64,000 bases of DNA, taken from positions 82,098-146,097 of the forward strand of contig CAZCYO010000004.1 of NCBI GenBank assembly GCA_964503265.1, written 5' to 3'. The notes under the pieces were generated by a model. It saw nothing but the letters and a program-made list of their open reading frames with translations. It was not told the DNA's origin and did not search any database. Origin of the DNA: an uncultured Gammaproteobacteria bacterium. GTDB taxonomy: Bacteria > Patescibacteriota > Microgenomatia > Levybacterales > UBA12049. Positions within the stretch are counted from its first letter, which is position 1. Each line of letters starts with the position of its first letter. The position numbers were made by a program, and so were the translations under genes. Below are positions 26,301 through 57,857 of the stretch, in pieces.

Positions 26301-27245
26301 GTAAGTATATCCTGGTCTCCAAGTACAGGCAGTTATACCAACAGAGATTTCAGCGATAACGATCATATCCAGATTTATTCTAACTCGAACTTTACGGGAA
26401 CGAAAATACTTGATGGCGGTGTGGGTGGAGGTACAACATCATGGAATATTCCAGTGAATACTTCTGGTTCATATAATTCTGTCAAACCAGGCCTAACATA
26501 TTACGCTCGCATCTACAGTTTCAACGCTCCTTGTAACTGTAGTAACGGAACAAATGGCTCCTTTACCGTACCTGGCACAAATGGTGGAAGTGGTGACTCT
26601 CCTGCCACCAATCTTCAAGCAGGAGTACAGTCCTCTCAAGTTACTTTATCCTGGTCACAAAGCAAAGGAGTATATATGAATCGTGATACTTCAGACAGTG
26701 ACCATATCCAAGTCTACTCGAATTCGAATTTTACCGGGACGAAAGTTCTTGATGGTGGTGTCGGTGGTGGCACACAGAGCTGGACAATCCCAGTCAACAA
26801 TTCTGGCGCATATAATTCTGTTCAACCGGGCAAAACGTATTATGCTCGGATTTATAGCTTTAATGCTCCCTGTAATTGTAGTGACGGAACAACGACGAGC
26901 TTTACAGTAAACGGCACAACGAACGATCATGCTGCAAGTAATCTTCAAGCGGCAGTGCAATCGAACCAAGTCGTTTTAAGCTGGGCACAAAGTAGTGGTA
27001 CGTATATGAATCGTGACACATCAGATAGTGATCATATTCAGGTATATACAAATCCTGACTTCAGTGGCACAAAAGTATTAGATGGTGGTGTGGGTGGTGG
27101 AACGCAAAGCTGGTCAATTCCTATTACTAACTCAGGTACATACAATTCACTTAACTCGGGAACGACGTACTACGCTCGGATTTATAGCTTTAATGCTCCT
27201 TGTAACTGCAGTAGTGGTACCACTACAAGCTTCAGGACCCCCTAA
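23328..27245 (+). CDS. Surface FAD-dependent oxidoreductase-domain protein (PF12831-like) fused to five FN3-like tandem repeats
   Basis: N-terminal TM, then the FAD Rossmann motif DVVVVGGGTGGVSAAIQAARQGVRVGLIESTDWLGGQ. Five ~110-aa repeats follow, homologous to those in the 17109 gene. Confidence 0.6.
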   Translation: MKHTKRPDSRFFFKLFSKYSKNYNEHVIWENPFKTRRIVTRLFLLSLPVLLFTLYHVYTLVTNAAVNTSYDVVVVGGGTGGVSAAIQAARQGVRVGLIESTDWLGGQAAAAGVSNMDEGANERSSGIYSEFVNRVASKYGGAQYIHKCYFGGNNICPEPHVVRQVLEEMVAGTGRIDVYYRHSVTSVLKSGNIVTGVTTHSSVDNANNQFGAKVIIDATEYGDLLPKAGIAYRIGSQNSGSINTAACIQDITYTAVVKRYDGGIPSYLQITTAPPGYNSTIESRFSEMVTSSGARDNGNAPYYWSWIHHNAYRGMADSTRPSTTDAGSGAASITKTGINFANDYPAEKPYNNTAGNTTLSVRYIEDTAYRKQADCDAKLKTIQFIYYMQKSGQNWSVADDEGFDTSYNQSENSCSNIPTAFKEIEKRLPVMPYVRESRRMIGVTTYTSSQLRAQKQSNRLDGSSVKAVNFSNSIAIGGYDDDLHNCNDASTLDSSIDLISDKGMGGGTFQIPLEALIPQSVDGFIAAEKNISQSRLVNGATRLQPITMLTGQAAGALGAISAQSNRQPRTIKPIEVQLALANAKSYLALAQFNDVTPGNAYFAGVQIASLYNVFYGDGSGNFNTSGVLTRGTGAILLTRLLNIPTNGTEDDAITQIRLRGYTTASSNAAYNPGNTLIKGDLAVLLARALGQSPGSVDGALSSLSSLGIPVECTNSGCAGDSVTRGIFANAAAYSLKYIQNGITPTTPIPQGNPASNLQVNTQPTQVSLSWSSSSGIYANTNASDGDHIQIYSNSNFTGTRVLDGGVGDGTQSWTIPVNNSGEYNSVQPGKTYYARIYTFNAPCNCSDGVMGSFTVPNAPIIGEVAQPASDLSISAQAAQISLTWTASSGKYTNTNANDNDHIQVYSNPNFTGTKVLDGGVGGGTQSWTIPVNNSGAYNSVQPGKTYYARIYSFNAPCNCSDGTTGSFTVPGNSPTTDKPASNLSINAQSSQVSISWSPSTGSYTNRDFSDNDHIQIYSNSNFTGTKILDGGVGGGTTSWNIPVNTSGSYNSVKPGLTYYARIYSFNAPCNCSNGTNGSFTVPGTNGGSGDSPATNLQAGVQSSQVTLSWSQSKGVYMNRDTSDSDHIQVYSNSNFTGTKVLDGGVGGGTQSWTIPVNNSGAYNSVQPGKTYYARIYSFNAPCNCSDGTTTSFTVNGTTNDHAASNLQAAVQSNQVVLSWAQSSGTYMNRDTSDSDHIQVYTNPDFSGTKVLDGGVGGGTQSWSIPITNSGTYNSLNSGTTYYARIYSFNAPCNCSSGTTTSFRTP
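25582..27242 (+). repeat. Five tandem ~330-bp coding repeats, with a ~150-bp perfect duplicate at ~26071 and ~26741
   Basis: Identical segments ttcttgatggtggtgtcggtggtggcacacagagctggacaatcccagtcaacaattctggcgcatataattctgttcaaccgggcaaaacgtattatgctcggatttatagctttaatgctccctgtaattgtagtgacggaac occur twice. These account for the spurious antisense ORFs in the track. Confidence 0.7.
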
Positions 27246-27260
27246 TAATAGCGCATACTG

Positions 27261-30200: not shown

Positions 30201-30663
30201 AATGAGAAATACCGGCAATCATACCATCTACACCTATGCAATTAGCGCTGGAGATGTAACACACATCCTCATTCCAAATTCAGGGCAAGCTTTTTCACTT
30301 GGGAATAAAGATCCATATGGCTTTCCTGACTATGTTGATACCACCGGACGAGCACTCGGGTGGGTTTGTGACCCAGATGATTTTAACCAAGCAGTCACCG
30401 TTCATTTCTACCTCGACGGCCCAGTTGGGCAAGGAACGTTTATCGGGCAAGCTACTGCGAGTATTCCAGATGAGAAAGCAGTTGGCTACTTCTGTGGTGG
30501 AGTAAATGCACATCGTTTCGCTTGGACACTCCCAGAAAGCGCGCTCACTGGATCACATCAACTTTATGTATATGGCAGTAATATTGGAACTGGAAATACA
30601 CAGCTCCTTGGTGGAGGCCCTATTTCAACAACTGATCGTAAGCAAGCCCCAGCGGGACTATAA
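27261..30663 (+). CDS. Surface FAD-dependent oxidoreductase-domain protein (paralogue 2) with three C-terminal ~120-aa GW(G/A/V)CD repeats
   Basis: The start is taken at MKKHIHH… after the upstream stop; the track ORF 27082 overlaps the previous gene. It has the same TM + DVVVVGGGTGGVSAAIQAAR…WIGGQ domain as 23328. The C-terminal repeats are GWGCDVDATNH…FYADGGGFGTF…, GWACDKANNS…IYIDGGGFGQF…, GWVCDPDDFNQ…FYLDGPVGQGTF…. Confidence 0.6.
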
Positions 30664-30709
30664 ATAGTAAATAAAGCTTGACAAATAAAGACAATTTTCT
30701 CATGATAGA

Positions 30710-33616
30710 GTGAGCGCGATAACCTATATTAGCATGATTGATAGACATACGTTTAAACATCTTCCAGCACTAGTAAAAAAAGCTAAATATTATCCATTCG
30801 TTACACGCCATAAAAAATCTAGTTTATTTATCCTCCTTCTCCTAGTAACTATTCTTCCGATAAGTATTCTCTTCTCACTTCAACGAACAAGAATTTCAAG
30901 TAATGCAAACAGTACGCTCTCGTACGATATCGTCATCGTTGGCGGTGGAACTGGTGGTGTGAGTGCTGCAATTCAAGCTGCCAGACAAGGAACACGTGTC
31001 GCTATCGTTGAACCAACTGATTGGCTAGGTGGACAAATGAGTGCTGCTGGCGTATCCACTATGGATGAAGGATACAGTCGATCTGGTGTAATCATTGAAA
31101 GAAGTTCAGGAATTTATCGTGAATTTACCCAAAAAGTAATTAGTAAATATAATGGACTCGCATATATGCATAAATGTTATTGGGCCGCTGATTCACTTTG
31201 TATTGAACCAAGTGTCGCGAAAAATGTATTAGGAGAAATGGTAACGAGTACCGGTAATATTGATATCTATTACCGAACGAAAGTTACGCAAGTCCAGAAG
31301 ACTGGTAATACAATAACTGGTGTGCTGACTCACTCAACTGCCTCAAACGATGATAATATTCTTGAGGCAAAAATTGTAATCGACGCAACAGAATATGGAG
31401 ATGTTATACCATTAACAGGAGCTGATTATCGTCTTGGCAAATATGTCGCAAGTAGTGGTATTAACGAAAGCGTCTTAAATACATGTATGCAGGACATTAC
31501 CTATCCTGCGACAATTAAACGCTACGATAATGGCATTCCAGCAAATTTACAGATTACACAAGAGCCACCTAACTACCAAGCTGCACGATCACTCTTTATA
31601 CAAGATGTCTCTAAATCTACAGCGCCGGGAGTATCTGATAATCCTCCCTGGTCTTTCACCCAGTTTTTAGGGTACAGAGGCATACCAGATAAATCTCGAC
31701 CGTCTACATCAACACCCACGACAGTCGCAGGACTACAAAGCATTACAAAGACAGGGATAAATGTATCAGGAAATGACATCGCTGAGTCCCTTCGATTTAT
31801 CCAAGATACTACTTTTAGACAAAACCAAAGTTGCGAAGCAAAATTGCGAACGATTCAATATATTTATTACATTCAAAAAGAACTAAACCAACCATGGTCA
31901 GTCGCAGATGATGAGGGGTTTGATACGCTATATAACACTACAGATAACAACTGCACGAATATTCCAGCTGCATTTAAAGAAATTGAGAAGCGCTTACCAC
32001 TTGCACCATACGTTCGAGAAAGCAGGCGCATTATTGGACTAACTACATTAACCTCATATCAGATTCAAGCACAAAAAGACTCTGACCATAAAACAGTCGC
32101 ATCTGTTAAGCCAACTTCATTTGAAAATAGTATCGCCGTTGGTGGATATAATATGGATTTACATAATTGTAATACCTCATCTACCATCGATCCATCAATT
32201 GATAGCACAGGCAGTGTGAATGGTAATCATGAAAAGTTCCAAGTTCCCCTTGAATCACTCATTCCAGCCTCAATTGATGGTTTTTTAGTTGCAGAGAAAA
32301 ATATATCTCAAAGTAGAATAGCAAACGGTGCAACCAGACTTCAGCCAATTACGATGTTGACTGGACAGGCTGCCGGAGCGCTTGCTGCAATTTCCGTTAA
32401 AACTAACCGTCAACCACGTTCTGTTGTCCCAATTGAAGTACAGAGTATTCTTCTTGATGGGAAAGCGCCAATTTCCCTCTATGACACAGTCGATGTAACA
32501 CCAGATAACACTCGCTGGAAAGCAATCCAGATCATCTCTAACTATAATATTATGGTAGGCTATGGTGATGGGAGGTTTGGTCCAGATGACGCAATGACTC
32601 GTGGAACAATGGCGATTGTGTTAACCCGTCTCCTGCAAATCCCAACAGATAATACACCTCTTGATGCATACAATAAATTAAAAGAGAAAGGCATTACCAC
32701 TGCTGCATCATACACAGAATTTGGACCAAATAGTCAGCTCTTAAAAGGTGAACTAGCACTTTTCATAGCCAGAAGCTTAAATCAATTCCCAGCAGATGGA
32801 CCTGAAGCCATAACATACCTACAAACACTCGGGATTACGCTCGGTTGCAATGGAGCAACTCCTTCATCATGCAACACTCAAACAAGTAGTAGAGCTGACA
32901 TGGCAGAAGCAGTATCTGCTACATTAATCTATATCAAAATTAATAAAGGAACTGGAGAAATCACACCACAACCGACACAAGTCGTTAGTACTCCAGTTCC
33001 CACAACAATCAGTATCAGTCCAACTACAGAACCAACAACAGCTATCGCTTGCCCAACTGAGATTCAAGGATTTTATGATGTCCCATCAGACTACCAACCT
33101 GCAACGAAATGTTTTAATGAACGCTATTGTATCGTTCGTGGATTTTCAGCACACATGCTTGGACCTGATGACATCTTAACTCGTGCTCAGTATGTGGCAT
33201 TTATCTTACGATATCACGATCAAATTGTCGGAGACTGGTCGCTTATGGGTCAAAATGAAGTAAACGCATTACCTAAATATCCTAATAAAATAACAAATCT
33301 AGAAACTGGTAAACAACAATTTCTCTTTTCTGATGTCGATCCATCAAATTCACTTGCGCGCGAAATCTATACCTCACAAAAATATGGATTCATCCAAGGA
33401 TACCAAGATGGAACATTTCTCCCTGATGAACAGTGGTATTTTGGTTTCCACGGCGTAACGCGAAATGACGAATGGCCACTTGGATCACCGTATACATTCA
33501 CTCAAGTAGGGGATCGTGTAAAACGAATCGACTTTCTACGAGGTCTTTATACCTATGGTAAGTATCACAATACGCTTCCTGCCTGTAATGATCTTCCAAC
33601 TATCCAATATCCGTAG
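30710..33616 (+). CDS. Surface FAD-dependent oxidoreductase-domain protein (paralogue 3) with C-terminal SLH-like modules
   Basis: TM + DIVIVGGGTGGVSAAIQAARQGTRVAIVEPTDWLGGQ. The C-terminus has CIVRGFSAHMLGPDDILTRAQYVAFILRYH and GFIQGYQDGTFLP (SLH-like), homologous to the C-terminal part of 20504. Confidence 0.6.
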   Translation: MSAITYISMIDRHTFKHLPALVKKAKYYPFVTRHKKSSLFILLLLVTILPISILFSLQRTRISSNANSTLSYDIVIVGGGTGGVSAAIQAARQGTRVAIVEPTDWLGGQMSAAGVSTMDEGYSRSGVIIERSSGIYREFTQKVISKYNGLAYMHKCYWAADSLCIEPSVAKNVLGEMVTSTGNIDIYYRTKVTQVQKTGNTITGVLTHSTASNDDNILEAKIVIDATEYGDVIPLTGADYRLGKYVASSGINESVLNTCMQDITYPATIKRYDNGIPANLQITQEPPNYQAARSLFIQDVSKSTAPGVSDNPPWSFTQFLGYRGIPDKSRPSTSTPTTVAGLQSITKTGINVSGNDIAESLRFIQDTTFRQNQSCEAKLRTIQYIYYIQKELNQPWSVADDEGFDTLYNTTDNNCTNIPAAFKEIEKRLPLAPYVRESRRIIGLTTLTSYQIQAQKDSDHKTVASVKPTSFENSIAVGGYNMDLHNCNTSSTIDPSIDSTGSVNGNHEKFQVPLESLIPASIDGFLVAEKNISQSRIANGATRLQPITMLTGQAAGALAAISVKTNRQPRSVVPIEVQSILLDGKAPISLYDTVDVTPDNTRWKAIQIISNYNIMVGYGDGRFGPDDAMTRGTMAIVLTRLLQIPTDNTPLDAYNKLKEKGITTAASYTEFGPNSQLLKGELALFIARSLNQFPADGPEAITYLQTLGITLGCNGATPSSCNTQTSSRADMAEAVSATLIYIKINKGTGEITPQPTQVVSTPVPTTISISPTTEPTTAIACPTEIQGFYDVPSDYQPATKCFNERYCIVRGFSAHMLGPDDILTRAQYVAFILRYHDQIVGDWSLMGQNEVNALPKYPNKITNLETGKQQFLFSDVDPSNSLAREIYTSQKYGFIQGYQDGTFLPDEQWYFGFHGVTRNDEWPLGSPYTFTQVGDRVKRIDFLRGLYTYGKYHNTLPACNDLPTIQYP

Positions 33617-34691: not shown

Positions 34692-34941
34692 ATTCCAAAG
34701 ACAGTAACTCTTGGTTTAAACCAAGCTAAGCTGAATAATCAGAGTTACCGAGGGGCACAAATTAGTTACCGGTTATTAGTTATACGTTATTAGACAAAAT
34801 GTACGTCCAATATTCATTACTAATCACCAATAACCACATATGGCACCTCGAAAGGGTGTCTTTTTTGTTTTAGCTTTGCTAAAACAACCCCTAACGGAGC
34901 CTGAAGGGCGAAGTGGGGTAAAACTATTAAGGAGTTTACCT
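34692..34941 (+). promoter_or_regulatory. Long 5' leader of rplJ (candidate L10(L12)4 autoregulatory leader)
   Basis: ~250-nt untranslated region between the promoter and the rplJ ATG, with RBS aaggag at 34929-34934. L10 leaders are a known autoregulatory element in bacteria. Its structure was not verified here. Confidence 0.4.
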
Positions 34942-35490
34942 ATGAACAATACATCTGAACCAAAAGTAAGTGCTAATAAAGCGAAAAAAGAAGTAATTAT
35001 CGCAGAAATGACCGATATGGTCACTCGTAGTAAAGGGATGGTCTTTACGAACTACACAGGGCTTACGCATCAACAACTAGAAACGATTAAGCGCGCTGTT
35101 AAGAAGCTAGACGGGAATTACGTCGCTGTTAAGAATACACTTCTTCTACGAGCACTTGGTGACGTTACACTCTCAGATGATGATAAGAAAAAGTTTGAAA
35201 ATCCTACAGCTGCTCTCTTCATGTATAACGATGTAGTGGAACCGTTAAAAGTTCTTTCAAAGATGATGAAAGAAACTGAAAAACCTACGATCAAACTTGG
35301 TATTTTCGAAAGCATTGCAGTATCAGATAAAGATGTTCTGAGAATCTCAACACTTCCATCAAAAGACGTACTTCGAGCACAGCTACTTGGTCAAATGATG
35401 TCACCAATCCAAGGACTACATCGAGCATTATCATGGAACATGCAAAAATTTGTAATGACACTGAGTGCTATTGCGAGCAAAAAAGCATAA
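34942..35490 (+). CDS. rplJ: 50S ribosomal protein L10
   Basis: MNNTSEPKVSANKAKKEVIIAEMTDMVTRSKGMVFTNYTGLTHQQLETIKRAV… with an AAGGAG RBS. The track ORF begins further upstream, at 34840, in the leader. Confidence 0.85.
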   Translation: MNNTSEPKVSANKAKKEVIIAEMTDMVTRSKGMVFTNYTGLTHQQLETIKRAVKKLDGNYVAVKNTLLLRALGDVTLSDDDKKKFENPTAALFMYNDVVEPLKVLSKMMKETEKPTIKLGIFESIAVSDKDVLRISTLPSKDVLRAQLLGQMMSPIQGLHRALSWNMQKFVMTLSAIASKKA

Positions 35491-36141: not shown

Positions 36142-38046
36142 ATGGCATTTGAAGATAGTGGAAGTGGAGCTTCTGTCCCAAGAACTGATCTCTTAACGGT
36201 TAAATCCGAAGAAGATAGACTTGAAAGTGATGCAGCTGACGTACTGAATGCATTACGAGCACAAGTAACTTCTCCCCTTTTTGACGAACGACAAGGAAAG
36301 ATAATAAAAAGAACGATGGATTCTCTGTATCCACTAGTAAATATCACTGCTCAATTAGGTAACGAACGACATACACGTCAGTTGTCAGAAGATGATATTG
36401 TCCGAAATAGCGAAGCTGCATTAGGAATGGACTTCCTTATTGAAGATAAGCTCGCGTTATTAGATGACCAAATTAAAAAGGCTGGTATTATTGGAGGGAA
36501 AGCAGCCACCTACGTTCCAGTTGTAAGACGGCTATCTTCATTACGTGTAGGCATACCAATTAATGGCGTAACACTTAATGATTTAGTGGTTAACCCAGAT
36601 GCAGTTGAGCCTGAGAACTTATTAGAAGTAATGATAGAACTTGGTCAAAGTGTCGGAAGAAAGCAGACTGAAGCAATGGCTCAAAAACATGCTGCTACCT
36701 ATACAGACTACCTTCAATTTCCCGCCAATTCGAAAATAGCTGCATCACTTTCTCTTGCAGGGTTTCTCGTGGCTGGAATATTAACTGATGACACCATTCG
36801 ACGCCTCCCTATTCCTCGTCAATATGCAGAAGAGGCGGGTAAAAAATTAAAGCAATTATATACAGGGACAAAAGCCGTTCAAGAAAGAGGACTACAAATG
36901 ATGCTTACAGGAGATTCGGATTCTGCGAAAAGAATGAGAGCCACATTGCTTACGAATATAGATACCTTAACTGGTTATGAGTTTATGCAGGCTCTTGGTA
37001 TAAGAAGGCATTCTGATATGCAGGGAATTATTCGCCAACTTGACGATTTACCCAAAGACGATTTTACAACGGCTTTAGAAGCAAGAATATTTTCTGAAGT
37101 AGAAGCACTCAATCCTACTGTGGTTTTTTCGACAGAAGATGCGCTTGATTTAGTAGGAGAAGGATCAGGTCCTAAATCCACTATTTCTCTTGAGCAAGCA
37201 GCAAATGCAGCTTCTAAAAGAATAAAAAATAAAGTTTCAATAGACCCTGCTGCACTTACATGGGGAAACGCTCCTCAGCCTGAAGAGATTATTGTTGAAT
37301 CGGGTAGTAACAGAACAAATGGGAGAATTCTGTCTGTTGGCTACGTTTATGCTGATACTGATATTGAAGGTGAACAAGAAGTATTATACTGCGACTACTT
37401 GCTTGATAAAAAAACTTTTGACTGGTCACTGCTCACCTCTCCTACATCTGAGAAGGGTGCACCGATTGCAGCTCATTTTTCCTCGCTGACTGCTCAAGTA
37501 CTTGATCTAGCAGCGCAACCGAAAGCGACAAGACAAACAGAAGTAGCTCCTGAACCAGCGAAAAAATATTTCGCAGAGGTTACTCCCGATCGAGCAGAAA
37601 AAATTAGAGAGCAAAAAATAAGACCCAGAGTCGAAGCCACAAATGCACAGCTTACAAAAGATACTGAGTTTAAACCTTCTGGTCTGCGTTATGAAGTAGC
37701 TCTACCAGATTTATCTGATGACACTGCGAGAAGAAATTTTGAAGACACTATTTTAGCAAATGTGAAACCACAAGATATACCTGCTGTACTTGAATATTTT
37801 GATAAAATCAATAAAGGTGAAATAAACCCTTCAATTGCTGCACTAACAAGTGTTAAAACGAATAATGGCGAACAAGTATTTAAAGACAAGCTCTATACTC
37901 CAAATGGAAGACTTCGTATTTTACATACTATAGCAACAGGAGAAAACGCTAAGCCAGGAGTTATTCGCCTCGTTCCAGGAATAGTGCGATATAGAAATGA
38001 TGTATCTTATGGAAAACGGGGAAGAAAACAGTTAAGAGAGATGTAA
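36142..38046 (+). CDS. Hypothetical 634-aa soluble acidic protein (orphan, occupies the position where rpoB normally follows rplL)
   Basis: Long ORF with no TM segments and no recognisable catalytic motif. It is slightly higher in GC than its surroundings. Confidence 0.45.
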   Translation: MAFEDSGSGASVPRTDLLTVKSEEDRLESDAADVLNALRAQVTSPLFDERQGKIIKRTMDSLYPLVNITAQLGNERHTRQLSEDDIVRNSEAALGMDFLIEDKLALLDDQIKKAGIIGGKAATYVPVVRRLSSLRVGIPINGVTLNDLVVNPDAVEPENLLEVMIELGQSVGRKQTEAMAQKHAATYTDYLQFPANSKIAASLSLAGFLVAGILTDDTIRRLPIPRQYAEEAGKKLKQLYTGTKAVQERGLQMMLTGDSDSAKRMRATLLTNIDTLTGYEFMQALGIRRHSDMQGIIRQLDDLPKDDFTTALEARIFSEVEALNPTVVFSTEDALDLVGEGSGPKSTISLEQAANAASKRIKNKVSIDPAALTWGNAPQPEEIIVESGSNRTNGRILSVGYVYADTDIEGEQEVLYCDYLLDKKTFDWSLLTSPTSEKGAPIAAHFSSLTAQVLDLAAQPKATRQTEVAPEPAKKYFAEVTPDRAEKIREQKIRPRVEATNAQLTKDTEFKPSGLRYEVALPDLSDDTARRNFEDTILANVKPQDIPAVLEYFDKINKGEINPSIAALTSVKTNNGEQVFKDKLYTPNGRLRILHTIATGENAKPGVIRLVPGIVRYRNDVSYGKRGRKQLREM

Positions 38047-38047
38047 G

Positions 38048-38296
38048 TTACTCGCTTTTCTGTTGGATACCTAGAAGCCAGAGGACGGCTTCTTTTTTGT
38101 AGCGGCGGTCGCCACGACTGTTGATGCGAATGGCTGGAAGCTTACCCCGTTTCCCCCATCTCTTAATAGTTAATGGTGACACTCGGAGCACTTCTGCAAC
38201 CTCGCGAACGGTTAATAGATCTGGTAAGTCTTGTATTGATATCTTTTGATCAGCCATAGCCTTGGGACTAGATATTAGTTGTCTATAAGGTAACAA
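38048..38296 (-). CDS. Helix-turn-helix DNA-binding protein, excisionase/MerR-like (HTH_17) family
   Basis: LLTVREVAEVLRVSPLTIKRWGKRGKLPAIRINSRGDRRYKKEAV matches the excisionase-family HTH pattern. It is a paralogue of the 53827 gene. Confidence 0.55.
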   Translation of the reverse strand: MLPYRQLISSPKAMADQKISIQDLPDLLTVREVAEVLRVSPLTIKRWGKRGKLPAIRINSRGDRRYKKEAVLWLLGIQQKSE

Positions 38297-38859
38297 AGTG
38301 GAACAAAGTTGTCAATGAGGAAAACGTATTTCTTCTCGTTTTTGAGAGAAGAAAGCGAATTTTTAATTTGAAATTTTACATTTTTAATCAAATCTACTTA
38401 TGTTACTTTTTAAACTTTGATTTCAAATTTCAAATTAGAAATTGAATAGTAAGGAAAGGTGTGTTTCCGGGAGACAGATCGGTTGGTGGCGTTTAAATGG
38501 GGCGCAATTCGCCCCACAAATACGTCAGTGGCGAAGCCACTTTCCAAATCCGTCTCCCGGTTACGCTTCCCCTAGGTGGGGCTACTTACAGTCTTCGCAT
38601 CTGATTGATCAGGCTCGCCAGGTTGAGGAACCGTCCGCTCCAAGATAGGCACAGGACCCGGGTCGAAGTCTTCGTGATAGGGTCCATCATGGAACCCTGG
38701 AAGATCTCGAACGGTCATACGCTTAGCTGACACAGCGTCAACCAGTTGCTGTTGAGCACGAGCTGGCCGGTTGGTATCCATAGCATCCTCCATCCGTGAT
38801 GACGTGGGACTTCGTTGTCCCGACGTGCCACATCTCTGTGGCGAAGATCAGATCAGAGG

Positions 38860-39285
38860 CTACTTGATGACCTGCCATGGCCGATCTGGCACTGGCATGA
38901 TCACCGGCAGGTGTTGCCGGGGGTCCGTCAAGCTGCGAATAACAGGCGCTGGGAATTCTCCCAACGGTCGCCTGGGAACAGACGTGAACGAAACGGCAGC
39001 ACTTGGTCCGACAGGGCTTCCCCCACCGTCAAAGGCCTGAATGTGCCCTTCTTTGCCGTCAATAACCAGCAGGTACTCACCTGAATCAGGAATTTCGACT
39101 GTTGCGACAGTCGTACTCCCGATAAGGTAATCAACCCGCCTCACACTCGAGATAACACGGCGGACCACAAGGTCATGTGGACTTTTCCGAACCGGAAGTA
39201 CCACAATGCCCCGAGCTTCAACCGACCGTGTCTGTCCTTCAGATTGAAGTGTGCGCACTACAAGTGCGCATACGACAGTATCCAT
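38860..39285 (-). CDS. Hypothetical protein (GC-rich island), 142 aa
   Basis: Start chosen at MDTVVCALV…, preceded by a GGAGGA RBS. The track ORF is longer. It shares a …LLVIDGK… core with the upstream gene. Confidence 0.3.
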   Translation of the reverse strand: MDTVVCALVVRTLQSEGQTRSVEARGIVVLPVRKSPHDLVVRRVISSVRRVDYLIGSTTVATVEIPDSGEYLLVIDGKEGHIQAFDGGGSPVGPSAAVSFTSVPRRPLGEFPAPVIRSLTDPRQHLPVIMPVPDRPWQVIK

Positions 39286-39367
39286 GATTCCTCCAGATAT
39301 ATGAACATTCAATTGGAGACACCATTGTCTCCTCAAGTCACAGCATCGTGAAGAAGTGGACACTACA

Positions 39368-39951
39368 CTAGGGAACGATGATCGGGAATGCCAATGCCTG
39401 GACTGGGGGCTGAGCGCCCTCGAGATACAGCCAGTACATATCATCCCCATCTTCGGACTCTTCGTAGATGACGCCGATCTCCTGATCGGTGTCGCCGTCG
39501 GTGATGATGAGATCTTCGAGATCTCCCAAGACATGGTAGTGCGGATCGAAATTGATCCTCGTCTGCAGAAGAGCACGCCGGGCGCGCCGTTCCTGACCTT
39601 GGGCCTTGTTGCGCTTTTCGCGCTTCTTCAAATTCTGGTGGGTACCAACCGTGAGCTTGCGACTCACAGATTCCCCGTCCTCCGGCGTGAAGATCACAGT
39701 GATATTCACCGGACCACTCATCGGAATGGGAATAGGCGTCGCCACCCGATGGTTAGACCGAGGGTCAACCATGTCATCGAAGAAGGTCTTCCCGTCGATC
39801 ACGACGAGGGCGTTAGACGGCACACGTGCGGCATTCCGCAGGAGGAGAAAGTGGTTATGGCCATTGTTGTTAGCCACGATACCACAGACACCATTCTGGG
39901 ACGTCCGAACTTCGACCGGCTTGTTGCCACGAAGAACAACAACATACATGA
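39368..39951 (-). CDS. Hypothetical protein (GC-rich island), 194 aa with basic linker and acidic C-terminus
   Basis: Start chosen at MYVVVLRGNKPVEV…, preceded by a GGAGGG RBS. Overlapping ORFs in other frames reflect the high GC content. Confidence 0.35.
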
Positions 39952-40420
39952 GATATTCCCTCCAGAGTAGTCGTGAGGCGCAACTGCGCCTCTTCCGATG
40001 CCACCATGTGCGAGAAATAGATCGTAAGTCTCCTTTCACTAATTGTGTTGTTTAACTGGTGGCTAAAGAGAAAGAAACACCATTTCCTCCCCCATAGCCA
40101 CCAGTCATAATAAATATAAGTAGTAACGTTGCATGAGTAAAAAGAGAGAGAGATTTGTTCGATAACGCATTTGCTATCGAAAAATGATTCCACCTATTCT
40201 GCTCAATACACCGTTAAAGCGTATTGTTAAGGTACAAAAAAAGATACAAAACTGTATCTGTAAGGATATTGTAAGAAATAAGCACGAAGATGTCAACTAT
40301 AGGTTTACTGATGAGGCTGAGAGAAGGTTGTTAGATAGAAGATAGGAGGTAAAAGATAGAAAGGAATACCGCTTATTTACTCCTAGAGCTAACTACCCTC
40401 TACTAACTGCTAGCTACTGA

Positions 40421-41272
40421 TTACTGACTGCTATTTTGTCCGAGTATTACGGTAATCTCTGTATCTGGCTGTGCGACTTCACCTGCTGGAAGTGTTGCGA
40501 CTTTTCCACCAAGTTCTTTTGCTATTTGTTCTGCAGCTGCTTTATGTGCTGTAGATGACGGAATAACGAGTGTCTGAGCATAATCACTTTTTACAGCATT
40601 ATCTTTGACTGTTACTTGTACAAATGGTAGCTTCCCAATAAGTGATGTCTCAATCTTTTTTGTCAGTCCCACGACTGTCGTTCCATTCAGAAGCCCTACT
40701 CGAACAATCGCTGGTGTTGGAGTAGCTGTCGTTTTTGCACCTGCGACTTGTGCGTTTGGCACTCCTGCCTCCCCTGTTATGTTAATCGGTCCAACTTCAA
40801 TAATTTTATTTGATGATGGTCGATACAAAATCGCTTTTTTTGCGTTGGTGTAGATAAGTACTTTGTCTCCATTTTGTGCATTTGCAAAAAATTGCTGACC
40901 TACTAGCTTTGACTTATCCGAAACAGTTGCAAGCGTCGGCGCTTCACCTGTTGGAAGAAGGAGTAATTTTCCGACAGCTGTTGTTACAGATTTTACTTGT
41001 TCCTCTGCAGCAATGGTTGGATCTTTTGCTCGTTGTTGAGCAGACTGGTATTGGTTATAGAAATAATACGCAGGAAGACTTGCCAACATAAGTAATATCA
41101 CGATTATAACGCCTACAATCGCAAGTGATTTAGGGGAAAGCATAGAGAGTCTCTTCGTCACATGTGTCATTTCTACTGGAGAGGTATGCGATTCAATCTT
41201 TACATCATCTTCACCATCAGTAGTCATATGTTCCTGAGATGTTTTTTTTATCCGTAAGTTTTTAAGCCCCAT
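40421..41272 (-). CDS. Membrane-anchored LytR_C (cell-envelope-related) domain protein
   Basis: Single TM, then a C-terminal segment IVRVGLLNGTTVVGLTKKIETSLIGKLPFVQV…TEITVILGQN matching the LytR C-terminal domain pattern. Confidence 0.5.
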   Translation of the reverse strand: MGLKNLRIKKTSQEHMTTDGEDDVKIESHTSPVEMTHVTKRLSMLSPKSLAIVGVIIVILLMLASLPAYYFYNQYQSAQQRAKDPTIAAEEQVKSVTTAVGKLLLLPTGEAPTLATVSDKSKLVGQQFFANAQNGDKVLIYTNAKKAILYRPSSNKIIEVGPINITGEAGVPNAQVAGAKTTATPTPAIVRVGLLNGTTVVGLTKKIETSLIGKLPFVQVTVKDNAVKSDYAQTLVIPSSTAHKAAAEQIAKELGGKVATLPAGEVAQPDTEITVILGQNSSQ

Positions 41273-41344: not shown

Positions 41345-43681
41345 ATGCCCAAACTTAGAAAAAATAGTATATATATTGTTCTTATTCTCCTTTTCCTCAC
41401 GCAAAGCACCCTCATCTCTTTTGCTCAAACGAGTGTAACTAAAAATACCTCTGTAAGCCTAACCGTTCAACTTCGTGACCAAGATGTTCCAATTTCAATT
41501 TCTCGAGTGTCAGATAACCAAACAGCCGAAGAAGACGAACTCGTTACCTACCAAATCACTTATGGTTCCCTCTTATCTTTTGCTGTGCCACTTACAATTG
41601 AGGCCTCCTGGGCTGATGCAAGTATTAATGGGTCGCTCGTTAATCTCGCTGACTACGTAAACGGCTCAGGAACAGACGCATATAATGGGACACCAGCTGT
41701 AGTAGACACTGTAAACCGTGTCGTATCATGGTCTATCCCCTCAATCCCAGCAAATACAACAAATCAAATCGTTTCTTTTACACTTCGCATGAACTCGAAT
41801 TATACAGGTGACTCAACGGTATCATTTGCTGTAAGCGCAGGTGCGAATAGTAGTGGTGCTACGATAACACCAATTAGCATTATACAATATTATCACCATA
41901 CACAACCCACTACTCCTTCAACCACCAATACTCCTACACCTGCAAGATCTATACCAACTCCCACACCAACAAAACCCCCCGTTGTTAATACGATTTCGTC
42001 AATAGATATTGATACAATATCCTCAAATTCAGCGGTTGCACACGTACTTCTTGCTACCCCTGCAAAACTCACGATTAGATATGGCACCTCTCCTAGCAGC
42101 ATGCTCAAAAATATAAAAGTTTCAGAACTAGTAACTGATTATTCGATAGAATTTCCTGATTTAATTCCCAAAACTCAATATTATTTCTCAATTTTAGCTA
42201 CAACATCGACAGGAACGACATCCTCTGACATCTACACATTTACCACAGCCAAAGGGAGTACGAGTTCTTTTGTAAATCTTACCTCGCTTATTATTACGGC
42301 AAATAATACCATTATCTCATCAGACCCTTTAAGCTTAGAAAAAACACTAAGTGGGGGGAATCAAATCCCTGCGACTGTTATTACGATCAATACTCCATTT
42401 GAATTTCGCTTTGCAGTTTCTGATAGCGAAAAGATCCGAAAAATTGAAGCGCTAGTTCGACAACACAAAAAGGTGCTTGGTATTAATAGTTATTCTCCAA
42501 GTAACACCACAGATGCTAGTTCAGATTCTGTCGAAATAGTTGAAATTTCACATGGTGTTTATAGTGGAAGACTCAAGGCGAAACTGGAGCCTGGTAACTA
42601 TGTGATTTATGCACGTATCACCGACGTTGCTGGTAACATAACAGAACAAGCACTCTCAAGAATGACAATCGTTAACCCGCTCACTATTCTTGACGAAGGG
42701 TCAAAGAATCCTATTGAAAATGCCCGTGTACTCTTTTTTAGAAAAAATCCTCGATCGAATAACTACACACTCCTGTCAGATCAATCTATTGCAACGAAGA
42801 ATCCTGTTTTTTCAAATCCAGATGGAACGATCTCAACAAATCTTATTCAAGGAGACTATAAAATTCAAGTCTCAGCAACTGGATATAAACAACAGGAAAA
42901 TTATTTTACCATCTCGACGACTAGTGAGTCTCAATACCCAACTATCTATTTAAAAAAAGATGCGTATTCAGTTATTAGTACTGTTCAATTTTACTCGGAA
43001 GTCACCGGAGATTTTTTCTCTTCATTTATGACATTTGTTACAACGCTTGGAGTTTCAAATCGGTTATTTAAATTACTATCTCTCGTATCACTCTGTTTTT
43101 TCATTATCGTGACGTTACTTAGTTTTTGTACTCGTTATCATATTCCTGTATCGGCAATCCCTGCATATTTCTTCTCACTGCTTCATTGGCACAGACGAAA
43201 AAACACTCTACGAATGCTTTCAGGAGTTGTCAAAGATGAAGCAAGCGGAGAATTTCCTGTTAATCATGCAATTATTTATTTACTTGATCGAAAACGTAAG
43301 CGAATACTCCTTCATACCCAAACAAATAATCTCGGCATGTTCACGATAACGCTTCCCCCGGCTCCTTCGTACCTTCTATTGATTAAAAAACGCCATTATA
43401 TATCTCTTGAATATATCGTCACTTCACGTGAAGACATTCAGATATACCTCGAAAAGGATCCACGTGCAACAAATCAAATCGTAGCGACAATCAAGTTATT
43501 CTTTCAAAACTTACTCGGACTTTGTTTTGAGATATTATTATTCCTCTCGTTAGTCTTTGAAGCTATTTTTATGGTGAGTTTAGGAGTAGTCACAGTAGCA
43601 CCCTATCTATTCCTCAGTATCGCAAACCTTGTGTTATGGTTATTATTTGTTAAAAACCAACGGTCAATTTACTCTATTTAA
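41345..43681 (+). CDS. Large membrane protein: signal peptide, ~550-aa extracytoplasmic region, C-terminal multi-TM domain
   Basis: N-terminal signal, Thr/Pro-rich linker, Ig/CarboxypepD_reg-like beta-rich segments, then several C-terminal hydrophobic helices. Confidence 0.45.
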   Translation: MPKLRKNSIYIVLILLFLTQSTLISFAQTSVTKNTSVSLTVQLRDQDVPISISRVSDNQTAEEDELVTYQITYGSLLSFAVPLTIEASWADASINGSLVNLADYVNGSGTDAYNGTPAVVDTVNRVVSWSIPSIPANTTNQIVSFTLRMNSNYTGDSTVSFAVSAGANSSGATITPISIIQYYHHTQPTTPSTTNTPTPARSIPTPTPTKPPVVNTISSIDIDTISSNSAVAHVLLATPAKLTIRYGTSPSSMLKNIKVSELVTDYSIEFPDLIPKTQYYFSILATTSTGTTSSDIYTFTTAKGSTSSFVNLTSLIITANNTIISSDPLSLEKTLSGGNQIPATVITINTPFEFRFAVSDSEKIRKIEALVRQHKKVLGINSYSPSNTTDASSDSVEIVEISHGVYSGRLKAKLEPGNYVIYARITDVAGNITEQALSRMTIVNPLTILDEGSKNPIENARVLFFRKNPRSNNYTLLSDQSIATKNPVFSNPDGTISTNLIQGDYKIQVSATGYKQQENYFTISTTSESQYPTIYLKKDAYSVISTVQFYSEVTGDFFSSFMTFVTTLGVSNRLFKLLSLVSLCFFIIVTLLSFCTRYHIPVSAIPAYFFSLLHWHRRKNTLRMLSGVVKDEASGEFPVNHAIIYLLDRKRKRILLHTQTNNLGMFTITLPPAPSYLLLIKKRHYISLEYIVTSREDIQIYLEKDPRATNQIVATIKLFFQNLLGLCFEILLFLSLVFEAIFMVSLGVVTVAPYLFLSIANLVLWLLFVKNQRSIYSI

Positions 43682-44675
43682 TCTTCTTAATACGATGCTC
43701 CACTTCAGTATACACAGCATGTGATATCTTTTGGATAAGCTTAGCTTGTTTCATTGCATCATAACCGCGTGTCATCACACAAATCAAATATGGCTTATTT
43801 GGATAATATACAATTCCACAGTTATGCAGTTGGTTAATTCCCGATGGAAGCTCTCGCTCGCCATATTTATGAGCGATCACAACACCTTTGGGAAGACCCG
43901 AAACAAGTCCTTTGGTAAATTCTGTAGCACGAAGTACTTCAAGCGCTTTCTCAGAATACTCACGACTTAAGTATGACGCGTTATACAGCACACGAAAAAA
44001 CGAAGCATACTGTTTAACTGACAGAAAATCCTCTGCTGTTGTTGCATTTGGCACCGTAATATCTAAGTCTGCTGATACTTTATCGATTAAGCTACCATCA
44101 ATATGCTGTTCAAGCACAGTTAACGCACCATTATCTGATTTCTCTATCATTCTCTCTATTAAATCTTGCACAGCATACGACTTCCCTTTTTCAAGTGAAG
44201 ATGTTGAGAAAATTTGCTGAAGCTCAGGCGTACTTCCCGTAAATGGCACCTTTGTAGGAAGAATCGATGGATCTTTTTCTGCTGCCTTATAATACGCCAT
44301 CATCACCGGGAGTTTCAGTAAACTCGCTGGTGCAAAATCTTCATCAGCATCGATACCAAATGTCGGCCCGTTATTAAGATCACGGAAATAAATAGATACA
44401 TCAGTGACATAGCCAGCCGCCTTTTCATTCGCAATCGTATCCTGCAACCTGCCTTTTAATGACCCGAATTCTTTTTGGTTAAGGAGGACATCCCCTTCTT
44501 CACAGTCCAGAAGTGGGTTAATTAAACTATATCCCCCAGAGCGCATCTGTTTTTCATTAGAAGAAGAGTCCTGCGATACAGGATCATTTCGAGGCACCAT
44601 AAACCACGTCGTACCGCTACCAAGCACAAAACAAAGAACACTTAAAATAATAGTTGTACGCACACTCATATGCAA
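43674..44675 (-). CDS. Class A beta-lactamase-like / D,D-peptidase-family serine hydrolase
   Basis: S-x-x-K (PASLLK) and SDN (EKSDNGAL) motifs, plus a downstream KYGE motif. N-terminal signal/TM. Confidence 0.5.
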   Translation of the reverse strand: MHMSVRTTIILSVLCFVLGSGTTWFMVPRNDPVSQDSSSNEKQMRSGGYSLINPLLDCEEGDVLLNQKEFGSLKGRLQDTIANEKAAGYVTDVSIYFRDLNNGPTFGIDADEDFAPASLLKLPVMMAYYKAAEKDPSILPTKVPFTGSTPELQQIFSTSSLEKGKSYAVQDLIERMIEKSDNGALTVLEQHIDGSLIDKVSADLDITVPNATTAEDFLSVKQYASFFRVLYNASYLSREYSEKALEVLRATEFTKGLVSGLPKGVVIAHKYGERELPSGINQLHNCGIVYYPNKPYLICVMTRGYDAMKQAKLIQKISHAVYTEVEHRIKKIK

Positions 44676-45155: not shown

Positions 45156-48100
45156 TCATGGATTATCACCTCCTTTCACGACGCTGTCTGTTGCTGTAGG
45201 TATTTTTCCATTTATAACCTGCATCGCACTCCATGAGAATTGCAATGGCTCTTTTACTTCTCGATCAATAACGATTGTAAATCCTTTCGTCGTTCGTCGA
45301 CTAATAACATATTTACTCATATGGCTGAGTACATCTTGTTCATACGTATCTTGACACTCATCGATAGAGTCATCTTTAGAACACATACCATTTTTTATTT
45401 GTTCCTTTATCTCATCTTCAGTAAGACGATCAACCGTAACTGAGATATTAATAAGAGGTACTGTTTCAAATTCTTTAGAGAATGTAACAGTCGCTGTTTT
45501 CTTTCCTTTTTCAATCGTGATCACACCAGCTGAGTCTTTCGGAAATGTTACTTGATCACTAAAGGATACTTTTCCTTTAAAGAATACGTCGCCAAAGAAG
45601 TTTGATATCCCTGTAACGATAATATTATGTGCTGTAATGCTATCAATAACAGTTAGTACACCTTCAACGAGTGAGTTACCTTTAACACGCATATCAGCTG
45701 AGATACTTGCCAGCCCATCAACTTGCAGACTTGTTAGTGTATATACAGTTGCTGGTCCAGTAGATGACAGGATATTTTGTTTAGTTAGAATATCAGCACT
45801 TGGAGTTGCAGTAATTTTATCTTGTGCAGACAGCACAGCAGAACTCGTCGCATCTGCTTTTTTCTTAAATGCATTTACCGCGTCATCGAGTGACGAAATC
45901 TTGTTTGTTAAGATCTCAAGTCCTTCAATAGAGTCTGCTTTAATTCTTCGAGCAAAAATCGTATCTGCGATAATAGTTGGAGTAATAATCTCAAACGCAG
46001 CACTGAGTCTATCGGTAAAGATTTCAGATTGAACCCCTGTACTAGCATTTTTTGCTTTTAGTTCTTTTAAGAATGAAAGAATATTAAGTTGTGGCTGTGT
46101 GATAACAGGTGCAGTATGACTAAACTGAATCGATGGATCTGAAAGGCCAGCATCCGTGTGGGCACTTGCAACATTAAGTCCCATACTTGAAGGTGTGACA
46201 TCTGTCACATACCCACTATTTTTCATGAGAACGTCAATTGCACTGCCTTGATAGTCTGTGAGATTAACGAACATCATAACTACTCCACAGCTTGTAGTTG
46301 GATTAATTCCAAGTGCTTCTTGCGGACACATTGAAGTTGTATTGAGGTCTTCGAGTGCTTTTCCAAGAGAACGACCACTGGTCGTTGCTTTCATTGCATA
46401 GCCTCTAATTGAAGCGGAGGTAAGGACGTCACCTGCATGAATTGGCCCATTTTCTGTGCTAACTTTGACAGGAACACGTCCAACAAGTGCGATTGGGTAT
46501 GAATTCTCCGTATATGCACCCGCTACAAAACCTGGATCGGTTGAAACAACGCCTAAGATAGTGTTTTGGTATTGTGCTGTTGAACGTTTTACGCTTTTAT
46601 TATCTGTTGAATCAATTTGAACGACTTCGCCTTTTTGCAGAACGTCTTTTGAAGTGTAATTCTCTGCCAAATCAGCCCCTCCTGCATAGAATCCTCCCTG
46701 TTGACCTGCATAGACAGCTCCATATTTATTAACTCTAAACGCATTGACACCGTCATTCTTTAGTGTTAAGAAGTCATATGAATTATTTACTTTATATTCA
46801 AAAACTGTTGGCTGTGAGATAACTTGTGCTGGGAATGCTGAAGTAGCAAGTGAAACATCTTGATTTATGCCATCATATCCAAGGAATCTTCGAGAAAAAT
46901 TAACCTGCACCTGTATCCATTTATCTCCATTACTCGCACCAATTGAGTCACCAGATCGTGAGACACTTCGATAAGAGGCACTGTAGAGTGCGTCTCGAGT
47001 CGGTGCAGTTCTGACTTGAAAGTCTACAAAATCATCGTTTGTTTTTTTCCAAGAAATTGTTGAATCAGTTGTCAGAGTTGTAGCGTATATTTGACCTGAG
47101 AGATATTGTCCATCAGGATACCACCCTGCATCATATAAGTTAACAATGTTACTTCCAGTATGTCCTCCTGCGAGAATTACCCATTTCCCATCAGGACGCT
47201 GAAATGTGACTGAGCCTGCACCTTGAACAAGTATTCCTGGTGTACCAGTGTAATCAATCATGCTAGGTCCAGCAACAGTCGTTCCTATCCCAGCACCCAC
47301 ACCAAACGTCCCTCCCCAAGGCAGATAGATATTTGTCCCGTTTCCATTGATCGTCTGTGTCTGACCTCTGGTAATTAAGAATGTGCCATCTGCTCGTGGA
47401 ATAACGATTGATCCACGCCCGACAGCTGTTGTGAGCGTTGGACCAGCGATATTAGTATTAGACCATGGGTTAATTATTGAAGTAGCAGTTGACTGTGCAC
47501 CAGTCGTACCCCCAGCAGCAGCGACAGTAACCCAGTATCCATCCTGACGCTGAAAAGCGTAAGATCCACATCCATGAGCTCCAGTAAGAGCAGGGCCGGC
47601 TGTGAATTGTTTTGCAACAGCATCGTACATCATAGATGTTGTATTTCCTGTGGCAAATGGGGCAAATCCGACGAACACACGATATGTATCAGCTAGCTGA
47701 CCAGCAAGTGGGATAGCCCATGATCCACAGTTAACAGCAGTAGATGTCGTCGGACCAGTAGAAAGTGTCGAGCCAGCAGGTTTTTTTACATCAGCAAAAG
47801 GATTAAATAGTGTAGTCGTTGTTAATCCTCCACCATGAACGATGGTGTACGTGCCGTCTTTATTAAGAATTGCTTGCGCACCGTAGCCTGCAACCCCTGA
47901 AAGATTTGGTCCCTGGACGAATTGAGAACCTGATGCTGCATTTGGATCATAAATATTCGTTGTCGCAGTTTGTCCCCCCATAACAAGGAGGAATTTACCA
48001 CTAGGAAGCTTTAGCGCAAACGCGCCTGAGCCTGCACCTGTAGTCGGAATATTTCCAGCACCAGACTGGGCAGTAAATTGTGAGGATGCTGGATCGTAGA

Positions 48101-55681: not shown

Positions 55682-55683
55682 CT

Positions 55684-57855: not shown

Positions 57856-57857
57856 TC

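Follow-up and report, generated by a model that had tools for sequence, protein, structure and literature searches.

A GC-rich orphan operon with predicted RNA end structures at a variable site of a Levybacteria chromosome

Phage 'morons' are independent promoter-gene-terminator units whose base composition is unlike that of their surroundings. The genomes of bacteria of the candidate phyla radiation (CPR) are very small, and how these organisms acquire and try out new genes is poorly understood. Here we describe a compact GC-rich cassette of three orphan genes in a 64,000-nucleotide stretch of such a genome (positions 82,098 to 146,097 of contig CAZCYO010000004.1, GenBank assembly GCA_964503265.1), termed the window below and used for all numbering except where another locus is named. 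The host is read as a CPR bacterium (Levybacteria, Microgenomates) of about 41% GC because the window contains nusG, rplA, rplJ, rplL and surface genes, among them those for SLH and PKD surface proteins, and because the closest relatives of the helix-turn-helix (HTH) gene beside the cassette come from Levybacteria/Levyibacteriota and other Microgenomates metagenome-assembled genomes. With confidence that stands about midway, we favour reading the cassette as an accessory operon that was acquired at a replacement hot spot of the Levybacteria chromosome, with end and leader structures at the RNA level. The observations behind it are foreign base composition, real orphan genes, absence from relatives, a site of varying content, structures kept by compensatory change and mosaic alleles.

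The cassette is set apart by its composition. GC is 54.3% at 38442-40040 compared with 41.1% for the window, and other 1.6-kb windows average 40.9% (s.d. 2.5, maximum 46.3), which places the segment at z = 5.4 and makes it the sole such island in the window. An initial annotation, made from sequence alone, had described a GC-rich segment well above background and proposed GC and codon-usage analysis as a check; the codon usage agrees, with GC at third codon positions (GC3) of 0.67, 0.51 and 0.47 in the cassette genes P1, P2 and P3 and of 0.24-0.31 in the flanking host genes. Base composition shifts abruptly at both cassette edges. The cassette is a minus-strand operon of three genes that encode P1 (193 amino acids, aa), P2 (141 aa) and P3 (69 aa), with a GGAGG-type ribosome-binding site upstream of each. 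Two minus-strand genes with such sites had been called before, and both are real; the start of P1 lies at 39949, so that the earlier 39951 is 2 nt off, and P3 had been missed. Read along the minus strand, the locus comprises a promoter-like site, a hairpin with a U-run, a weak promoter-like site, a 5' hairpin, a leader, P1, a two-hairpin module, P2, a second copy of the module, P3, a small hairpin, a three-way junction, an AT-rich palindromic spacer, a terminator-like hairpin and the upstream region of the HTH gene (Table 1). It sits between a LytR_C gene and the BldC-like HTH gene (LytR_C and galT in relatives).

We compared the cassette with a set of 80 species-level loci that bear the HTH gene. 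Homologues of P1-P3 and the RNA motifs were absent from all 80, in agreement with the earlier proposal that the segment is compositionally foreign and not ancestral. The cassette was otherwise seen in just two metagenomic sources, as divergent alleles. One allele is carried by five short Logan contigs of one common sequence (L002-L006), which encode the P1 relative P0002; a third allele, L087, comes from another run. Loci L088-L097, taken for extra alleles, are all identical to L008, one of the loci described below. When the contigs of the L002 type are joined, the order is promoter-like region, 5' hairpin, leader blocks, P1 homologue, a single two-hairpin module and a 58-aa P3-like open reading frame (ORF), followed by the small hairpin, the three-way junction, an AT-rich spacer and the upstream region and start of the HTH gene. 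Identity between this type and the window is 52% for P1 coding DNA, 71% for the upstream intergenic flank and 97% for the HTH upstream region and gene start. Against L087, the C-terminal part of P1 differs at 2 of 318 nt and the first module is 100% identical; P2 differs at 31 of 426 nt, the second module is again 100% identical from CTGATC (38851) onward, between the diverged P2 and P3, and the N-terminal part of P3 is strongly diverged. Because the differences from L087 are so unevenly spread among the parts, the alleles are, as judged from their alignment, mosaics with junctions at conserved non-coding modules. Between alleles, conservation is far higher in the non-coding parts than in the proteins. 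P2, which is missing from the L002-type allele, is flanked by the two module copies in the window, and P2 and one copy of the module are present or absent together.

The same site holds other content in the closest relatives. In L007 and L008 (96% HTH identity), a promoter-like motif shared with the window leads into a GC-rich block of other orphan ORFs, different in each, that runs towards the HTH gene; across the window, L004, L007 and L008, the motif precedes GC-rich orphan blocks of differing content. In locus L098, the interval from galT to the HTH gene holds another six orphans. The stretch between LytR_C/galT and the HTH gene therefore has different content in each of the window, the L002 type, L007, L008 and L098, as in replacement-type islands. 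All-against-all BLASTP of the cassette proteins recovers only the pair P1-P0002 and a pair of paralogues in L098. The latter are adjacent orphans of 194 and 214 aa at 8973-10339 (-) of that locus (27% identity, E = 4e-8) and have no detectable relationship to P1; comparison of the P1 family with this pair by hhalign gave a probability of 0.4%, and a relationship was rejected.

P1 has a single relative, P0002 (194 aa, 34% identity, E = 3e-18), found when 1.84 billion representatives were scanned in full with HMMER; searches of an index of 5.8 billion clusters, with P1 alone or with a two-sequence profile, returned nothing beyond these two. P1 and P0002 can be aligned end to end and have matching domain layouts. 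The AlphaFold2 model of P1 contains an immunoglobulin (Ig)-like beta-sandwich at residues 1-102 (predicted local distance difference test, pLDDT, about 80), a basic helix at residues 104-131 (isoelectric point, pI, 12) and an acidic tail (pI 4.05) that is modelled with low confidence. The protein ends in Q-x-L-x-F-P-I-I, which is conserved in P0002. Fold searches against the PDB and the viral structures of BFVD gave generic Ig/FN3/CARDB/PapD-like matches only. An in-frame GTG extension of P1 is not conserved, as L002 has a stop codon there. The sole relative of P2 is P0004, the near-identical variant of L087 (91% identical). Its nucleotide differences from P2 divide into 18 synonymous and 13 non-synonymous changes, and the resulting ratio of non-synonymous to synonymous substitution rates (dN/dS) of about 0.25 marks P2 as a real coding gene; its AlphaFold2 model is unusable (pLDDT 41). 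P3 is acidic and proline-rich, carries the motif LPGFHDGPxxEDFD and is probably disordered. The 58-aa ORF at the equivalent position in L002 resembles it weakly (32%), and an upstream ATG would extend P3 to 73 aa, albeit without a ribosome-binding site. Given the dN/dS of P2 and the end-to-end alignment of P1 with P0002, the cassette ORFs are true genes and not chance ORFs.

None of P1, P2, P3 and P0002 has a match in Pfam, PHROGs, PADLOC, NCBIfam or PDB sequences. Homology to ordinary housekeeping genes, which the initial annotation had named as contrary evidence, was thus not found for any of P1-P3. As components of a defence or toxin-antitoxin system the four proteins likewise lack a PADLOC, Pfam or NCBIfam match, a result with which an undescribed system would still be compatible. 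A blastn search of a phage collection gave no match to the cassette, scans of viral contigs with P1, P2 and two RNA motifs gave nothing, and neither did scans of metagenome contigs with the P1 alignment or with the intergenic motif. P1 and P2 are not detectably related to each other. The LLVIDGK core that they had been said to share does not hold up: the segments match with a BLASTP E of 52, and the string is not kept (LLAINGK in L087, YVTVNG in P0002). By these searches, the cassette appears to contribute one new protein family with two known members and two further proteins without relatives beyond near-identical variants.

Downstream of P3, the transcript strand carries the small hairpin CCCC-ACCUA-GGGG (38581..38569) and then a 94-nt three-way junction (38560..38467), in which a closing stem of 14-17 bp (CCGGGAGACGGAUU / GAUCUGUCUCCCGG) surrounds two inner hairpins. 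Three GC-rich stems had been noted at 38442-38600; they exist and together make up this one junction at 38467-38560. The accompanying suggestion of a structured leader or att-like site was right about structure, but the element is the 3' trailer of a minus-strand operon and has no att or attC signature. In L002 the junction has the same closing stem, with 19 nt of the 3' arm identical, whereas the inner hairpins keep their positions and differ wholly in sequence. Two 5'-arm differences between the window and L002 yield G.U pairs that are workable on the gene-sense strand only. We collected five such elements of 78-103 nt (one each in the window, L002 and L008, and two in L007), located 12-65 nt past the last stop codon of the cassette and all with the more stable fold on the sense strand. 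The consensus of their closing stems is C-Y-G-R-G-R-G...A-C / G-U...C-Y-C-Y-C-G-G. Over an 11-bp closing stem, 54 of 54 cells pair across the five elements and 4 of 11 pairs are changed on both sides, compared with pairing in 30-51% of cells in slid control alignments. In L007, two cassettes lie in series and their closing stems are almost identical. A hairpin of 56 nt that carries the junction closing stem occurs in L098, just past the first orphan gene downstream of galT. When a model made from the window and L002 was run on three loci, this hairpin, which had been left outside model building, was the top match (16.9 bits, E = 0.027), and it appears to be the one independent point for the junction family. 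A model of all five elements gave no further match when applied to 1.28 Mb of related loci, and it failed to detect the short hairpin of L098. A relaxed pattern scan returned mostly noise and was set aside, its two L044 matches falling inside a repeat-protein gene.

The junction resembles no known RNA in our comparisons. Rfam at permissive E-values, applied to the window region, L002, L004, L007 and L098, returned microRNA-precursor models only, the best at 29.6 bits and so far below its threshold of 80, so that the Rfam check proposed for the structured end brought up noise and no known RNA. Neither a tRNA nor a transfer-messenger RNA was found. A hammerhead or other ribozyme was rejected, as there are neither core motifs nor an Rfam match. 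An intrinsic terminator was rejected as well: in 4 of 5 elements no U-tract follows the junction (AAACACACC, AAAAUACGC, CACCAACC, AUUCUUCUC), and the L008 element is followed by CCUCGCUCUUUUGCUUUU, with a short U-run. A separate terminator-like hairpin lies about 110 nt past the junction, at 38354..38329. The element lacks the attC core sites RYYYAAC / GTTRRRY: it runs from CCGGGAGAC to GUCUCCCGG and then into AAAC, with no GTTRRRY on either strand at the boundary. What the junction does share with attC is a conserved fold with variable sequence after an ORF, a feature that is not specific to attC. The AT-rich spacer beyond it had been described as full of TTCAAAT repeats; it is AT-rich, but holds only three copies and is an imperfect palindrome. 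It cannot be aligned with the L002 spacer, which is likewise AT-rich and palindromic.

The upstream region is also structured and conserved. The promoter-like motif CCTATAGTTGAC[AT] with a downstream TACAAT recurs in L004, L007 and L008, and in the latter two sits after LytR_C and galT. The hairpin that follows it in the window is kept in L004 through changes on both arms (AGCACA / UGUGCU plus U7), and a different hairpin with a U-rich stretch occupies the matching position in L007 and L008. This hairpin may act as terminator of LytR_C, as 5' attenuator for the cassette or in both roles. Across the four genomes (window 40236-40303, L004 1-80, L007 about 2985-3105 (-) and L008 about 12790-12870 (-)), a hairpin and then a U-rich stretch lie about 10-25 nt past the motif; the hairpin sequence varies among them and is compensatory between the window and L004. 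From the weaker promoter-like site, a transcript would start at the base of the long 5' hairpin. This hairpin contains the 10-bp inverted repeat previously placed at about 40046-40095; the repeat exists, but is longer than described and lies at coordinates about 10 nt higher, with arms of 23 nt each at 40055-40077 and 40083-40105. Compensatory changes preserve it in L003/L004 (GACUGGUGGCUA / UAGCCACCAGU compared with GACUGAUGGCCA / UGGCCAUCAGUC). In the loop of the 5' hairpin, L003 (about 60-160) and L004 (about 225-300) have AT-rich palindromic inserts of roughly 60-100 nt, which differ from each other even though the two contigs share a cassette allele; the window has no insert. A motif of these inserts, GAATAATGAAT, recurs in the L002 3' spacer, and the inserts may represent strain-level variation or a small mobile palindrome. 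The leader contains a further hairpin, GAGGCGC-AGUU-GCGCCUC, at 39975-39992, which is kept through a G-C to A-U change (GAGACGC / GCGUCUC).

Between the genes lies the two-hairpin module, present in two copies in the window and a single copy in L002. When the three copies are compared, 11 of 11 predicted pairs are kept in at least two of the three sequences, and two pairs show compensatory changes; the fold of copy 1 taken alone is unexceptional (z = -1.0). A 49-nt core of copy 2 is 88% identical to L002, compared with about 52% for coding DNA. In the predicted fold of copy 2, the ribosome-binding site of P3 pairs with an upstream CCUCU. The three-way-junction end element, for which Rfam has no family, and the repeated leader module would both be new.

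Table 1. Features of the cassette locus and its neighbouring gene, in window coordinates
Feature	Position	Strand	Evidence or remarks
Promoter-like site CCTATAG-TTGACA-17 nt-TACAAT	40268..40303	(-)	11/12 consensus positions; downstream of LytR_C gene
Hairpin AGAUACA-GUUU-UGUAUCU and U-run	40236..40259	(-)	Read from sequence; directly after promoter-like site
Weaker promoter-like site TTTACT-17-TATATT	40113..40141	(-)	9/12 positions; consensus match only
Long 5' hairpin	40055..40105	(-)	Minimum free energy (MFE) -36 kcal/mol, z = -8.6
Leader before P1	39950..40039	(-)	Conserved GUGAAAGGAGA and UGGUGGCAYCGGAAGAG blocks, hairpin, GGAGGG ribosome-binding site; aligned with L002-L006
P1, 193 aa	39368..39949	(-)	ORF, ribosome-binding site, coding-type GC pattern 0.63/0.37/0.67
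Two-hairpin module, copy 1	39286..39367	(-)	Aligns with copy 2 and L002 copy; followed by GGAGGA site for P2
P2, 141 aa	38860..39285	(-)	ORF and ribosome-binding site; beta-rich, pI 9.0
Two-hairpin module, copy 2	38782..38859	(-)	GCCACA-GAGA-UGUGGC and GGGAC-AACGAA-GUCCC
P3, 69 aa	38572..38781	(-)	ORF, GGAGGA site 4 nt before second ATG
3' trailer, small hairpin and three-way junction	38467..38581	(-)	MFE -51.1 kcal/mol sense, -47.8 antisense, z = -7.0
AT-rich spacer, ~18-33% GC	38329..38446	(-)	Imperfect palindrome 38358-38446, terminator-like hairpin 38354..38329
BldC-like / excisionase-family HTH gene, 69 aa	38048..38257	(-)	HTH_17, MerR_1 and TIGR01764 pass cut-offs

The HTH gene next to the cassette had been taken as an excisionase-like sign of mobility. 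Its ORF spans 38048-38296, with the likely ATG at 38257, and an excisionase-family domain is indeed present: the protein scores 36.3 with TIGR01764 (cut-off 28.8) and 41 with Pfam HTH_17 (cut-off 27) and also matches PHROG excisionase families, although its best named match, BldC (NCBIfam NF033787), reaches 45.1 bits and stays below the 77-bit cut-off. The gene is not one for mobility, however, and the protein is conserved at 80-96% identity in more than 378 Microgenomates genomes, its 90% cluster having 938 members. The gene usually follows rplJ-rplL directly on the same strand. By this conservation and synteny it is a host core gene outside the cassette, and for that reason says nothing on mobility. 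In the window it is inverted relative to the usual arrangement, with an orphan 634-aa gene between it and rplL. That ORF (36142-38046 (+)) has normal GC, no Pfam, NCBIfam or PADLOC match and no tblastn match in the 80 related loci, and represents a second lineage-specific insertion at the site. The conservation of the HTH protein extends from Levybacteria to Woese- and Shapirobacteria (loci L007-L086), and it has the appearance of a core regulator or nucleoid protein of Microgenomates that has yet to be studied. In other Microgenomates, unrelated GC-rich cargo adjoins the gene (L009 11032-12147 (-), L037 10388-11837 (+), L014 10713-11087 (+) and L073 10371-11766 (+)), for example a 371-aa Cys-rich protein (GC3 0.76), pyrF/pyrE-like genes (called by eye), an ORF of 124 aa and a protein longer than 465 aa. 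The neighbourhood of the HTH gene seems generally permissive to foreign DNA.

Signs of a mobile cassette, which the initial annotation had expected, did not materialize. We scanned 24 window ORFs with Pfam (8865-33616, 36142-41272, 43677-44675 and 54593-63930; a 2809-aa ORF at 45156-53585 (-) and the ORFs at 1-8765 lie outside the scan), and none has an integrase, transposase or any recombinase domain. Pfam and PHROG searches revealed no Rep or capsid domain, and no direct repeat was seen to bridge the two cassette edges. There is no sign of a diversity-generating retroelement, with no reverse transcriptase domain and no long near-identical direct repeat in 37900-40500. An 18-nt imperfect inverted repeat (38317-38334 / 40072-40089) was put down to chance, since the L002 type has not kept it. 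IS200/IS605-type ends were rejected, as the structures at the two ends do not resemble each other and neither TnpA nor TnpB is present; an RNA-phage or Obelisk-like origin was rejected too, there being no replicase and the cassette being embedded in chromosomal DNA. The high-GC donor once envisaged found no support: the proteins are orphans, and no donor, high-GC or other, could be identified.

Elsewhere in the window, about 19 kb of large surface-type genes (15030-33616 (+)) lie between rplA (13120-13917) and rplJ (34840-35490) and split the usual nusG-rplKA-rplJL cluster. The block encodes a beta-helix protein, a GSDH+PKD protein, SLH-domain proteins and three paralogous FAD_oxidored proteins of 968-1305 aa. 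At 54593-61323 (+), a two-gene module occurs in three tandem copies, with A-type proteins of 362, 376 and 365 aa and B-type proteins of 327, 311 and 303 aa; the copies share 24-37% mutual identity, and none has a Pfam match.

How might such a locus work? If the cassette is an acquired accessory operon, cassettes would enter and be swapped by recombination through the conserved flanks and the conserved intergenic modules, and would be transcribed from the conserved host promoter-like site. The 5' hairpin and the 3' junction would act in the RNA, protecting, defining or processing transcript ends, and the intercistronic hairpins could set translation of the downstream genes, possibly through the basic helix of P1. 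The Ig-like/basic/acidic P1 might then work with the acidic, disordered P3 in a conflict-type system (defence, anti-defence or toxin-antitoxin), which is a guess. Several points weigh against this picture. The conflict-system idea draws only on orphan status, variability and charge pattern; the promoter, the RNA ends and the RNA-level action are all features that we infer from nucleotide sequence; and neither a donor lineage nor a recombination enzyme was identified. Both divergent alleles are GC-rich, which may reflect selection instead of recent import. The model built from the window and L002 placed the L007 elements at E = 1.9 and 6.4, within noise, and did not list the L008 element, and the pattern used to gather the 3' elements was written after seeing them, so that its five real matches compared with 0.6 in shuffles are not independent. 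The stem that would mask the P3 ribosome-binding site is disrupted in L087 and hence uncertain, and the architecture of the locus is seen in only four or five genomes.

The main rival to an acquired cassette is an integron-like system, in which the 3' three-way junction would be a DNA site analogous to attC, the recombinase would be encoded elsewhere and cassettes would be inserted behind a fixed promoter. It would account for a promoter-like motif that stays fixed while the cassette behind it changes from genome to genome, for the serial cassettes of L007 with their nearly identical closing stems, for the bracketing of P2 by two copies of the intergenic module, and for cassettes that each end 12-65 nt past the stop in a strand-specific fold of conserved architecture and closing-stem consensus. 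Yet the strand asymmetry, which depends on G.U pairs, fits RNA equally well; the element ends CCGGGAG...CUCCCGG-AAAC without attC cores; the ORFs scanned lack a tyrosine or other recombinase domain; and neither an empty site nor an excised circle was observed. Moreover, several cassettes are made up of two or three genes that each have their own ribosome-binding site, and AT-rich spacers with promoter-like sites lie between cassettes. On this evidence we regard the integron-like system as unlikely. We also think it improbable that the cassette is an old lineage-specific operon that was never imported, its GC kept up by selection for RNA structure and its alleles an ancient polymorphism. Two divergent GC-rich alleles at one site in related genomes, strongly conserved non-coding structures and the lack of a donor in billions of proteins would suit such an operon; against it, the cassette is absent from the 80 species-level relatives, the closest of which have other cassettes at the site, the GC3 of P1 (0.67) points to a different mutational background and not to local stems, and P1 is 34% identical between alleles compared with 71% for the non-coding upstream flank.

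That the island is a small integrated mobile element, a prophage remnant or a satellite, with the adjacent HTH gene as its excisionase, is largely refuted and very unlikely: the foreign composition, the hairpins at both ends and the TIGR01764 and PHROG excisionase matches invite it, but the HTH gene is a core gene by its spread, cluster size and rplJ-rplL synteny, no integrase, Rep or capsid domain turned up among the ORFs scanned and no flanking direct repeat was seen, the phage collection and viral contigs were scanned without a match, and the viral-structure fold search yielded generic Ig-like matches only. A large structured non-coding RNA as the functional product, with incidental ORFs, seems to us highly improbable. 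The best-conserved parts are indeed non-coding blocks, and GC-rich sequence yields long spurious ORFs on both strands; incidental ORFs would, however, hardly produce the dN/dS of P2, the full-length P1/P0002 alignment with its E-value and matching domain layout, a GGAGG site at the right spacing for each ORF or a confident Ig-like model for residues 1-102 of P1. An assembly chimera or contaminating DNA, to which the abrupt composition change at both edges could point, is barely credible: the same junctions are seen in both a 236.9-kb NCBI contig and a 37-kb Logan contig (run SRR12487046), and runs from two other accession series carry divergent alleles, with the L002/L004 allele joined to the same flanks.

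Beyond the acquired operon itself, a bolder and doubtful, though conceivable, extension is that a Levybacteria clade has an undescribed cassette system, in which a fixed expression site downstream of LytR_C/galT captures and exchanges small GC-rich cassettes from an unsampled pool. The three-way junction would then be the site of exchange or processing, parallel to attC in function and unrelated to it in sequence, with an unknown enzyme or RNA-level handling. If confirmed, the locus would point to a dedicated mechanism of gene sampling in CPR bacteria, with one promoter-like motif at the head of interchangeable foreign cassettes that all carry the same kind of structured end and encode proteins almost unseen elsewhere among billions of sequences. 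Its structures would be an RNA motif, or a family of motifs, new to Rfam, and it would indicate a GC-rich gene pool, perhaps of CPR viruses or other elements, that current databases have missed. Even on a modest reading, a tempting mis-annotation is corrected, in that the 'excisionase' by the island is a conserved core regulator.

In kind, the cassette belongs with what is already known, as a small horizontally exchanged hot-spot island with a 'moron'-like layout; the apparent fixed expression site in a CPR lineage would be new. It resembles replacement-type flexible genomic islands in its fixed site between LytR_C/galT and the HTH gene and in deviant, mostly orphan content that changes from genome to genome, and differs from them in very small blocks (0.4-2.5 kb), a shared promoter-like motif and a shared structured end; to our knowledge, the latter two are not a described property of such islands. 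Like phage 'morons' it is a compact unit of deviant GC with a promoter-like site upstream, a stem-loop downstream and conserved neighbours, but it lies in a bacterial chromosome without nearby phage genes and ends in a three-way junction without a U-tract in place of a simple terminator. With integron cassettes and their attC sites it shares a fixed promoter-like site, interchangeable cassettes and a folded, strand-specific end after the stop whose structure is kept while its sequence varies; it departs from them in having multi-gene cassettes and no core sites, with no IntI-like integrase among the ORFs scanned and no recombination event observed. The neighbouring HTH protein matches the BldC/excisionase-family MerR-like proteins in its size of about 69 aa and in its HTH_17, MerR_1 and TIGR01764 matches, and is set apart from them by its score (45 bits compared with 77 for BldC) and as a Microgenomates core gene by rplL without an integrase partner. 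Repetitive extragenic palindromic (REP)/bacterial interspersed mosaic element (BIME)-type and stabilizing hairpins, finally, offer parallels to the repeated intercistronic module, the 5' hairpin and the stable 3' structure with its sense-strand preference, whereas the conserved three-way junction and closing stem, confined to cassette ends at this locus in 1.28 Mb, distinguish the present elements from them.

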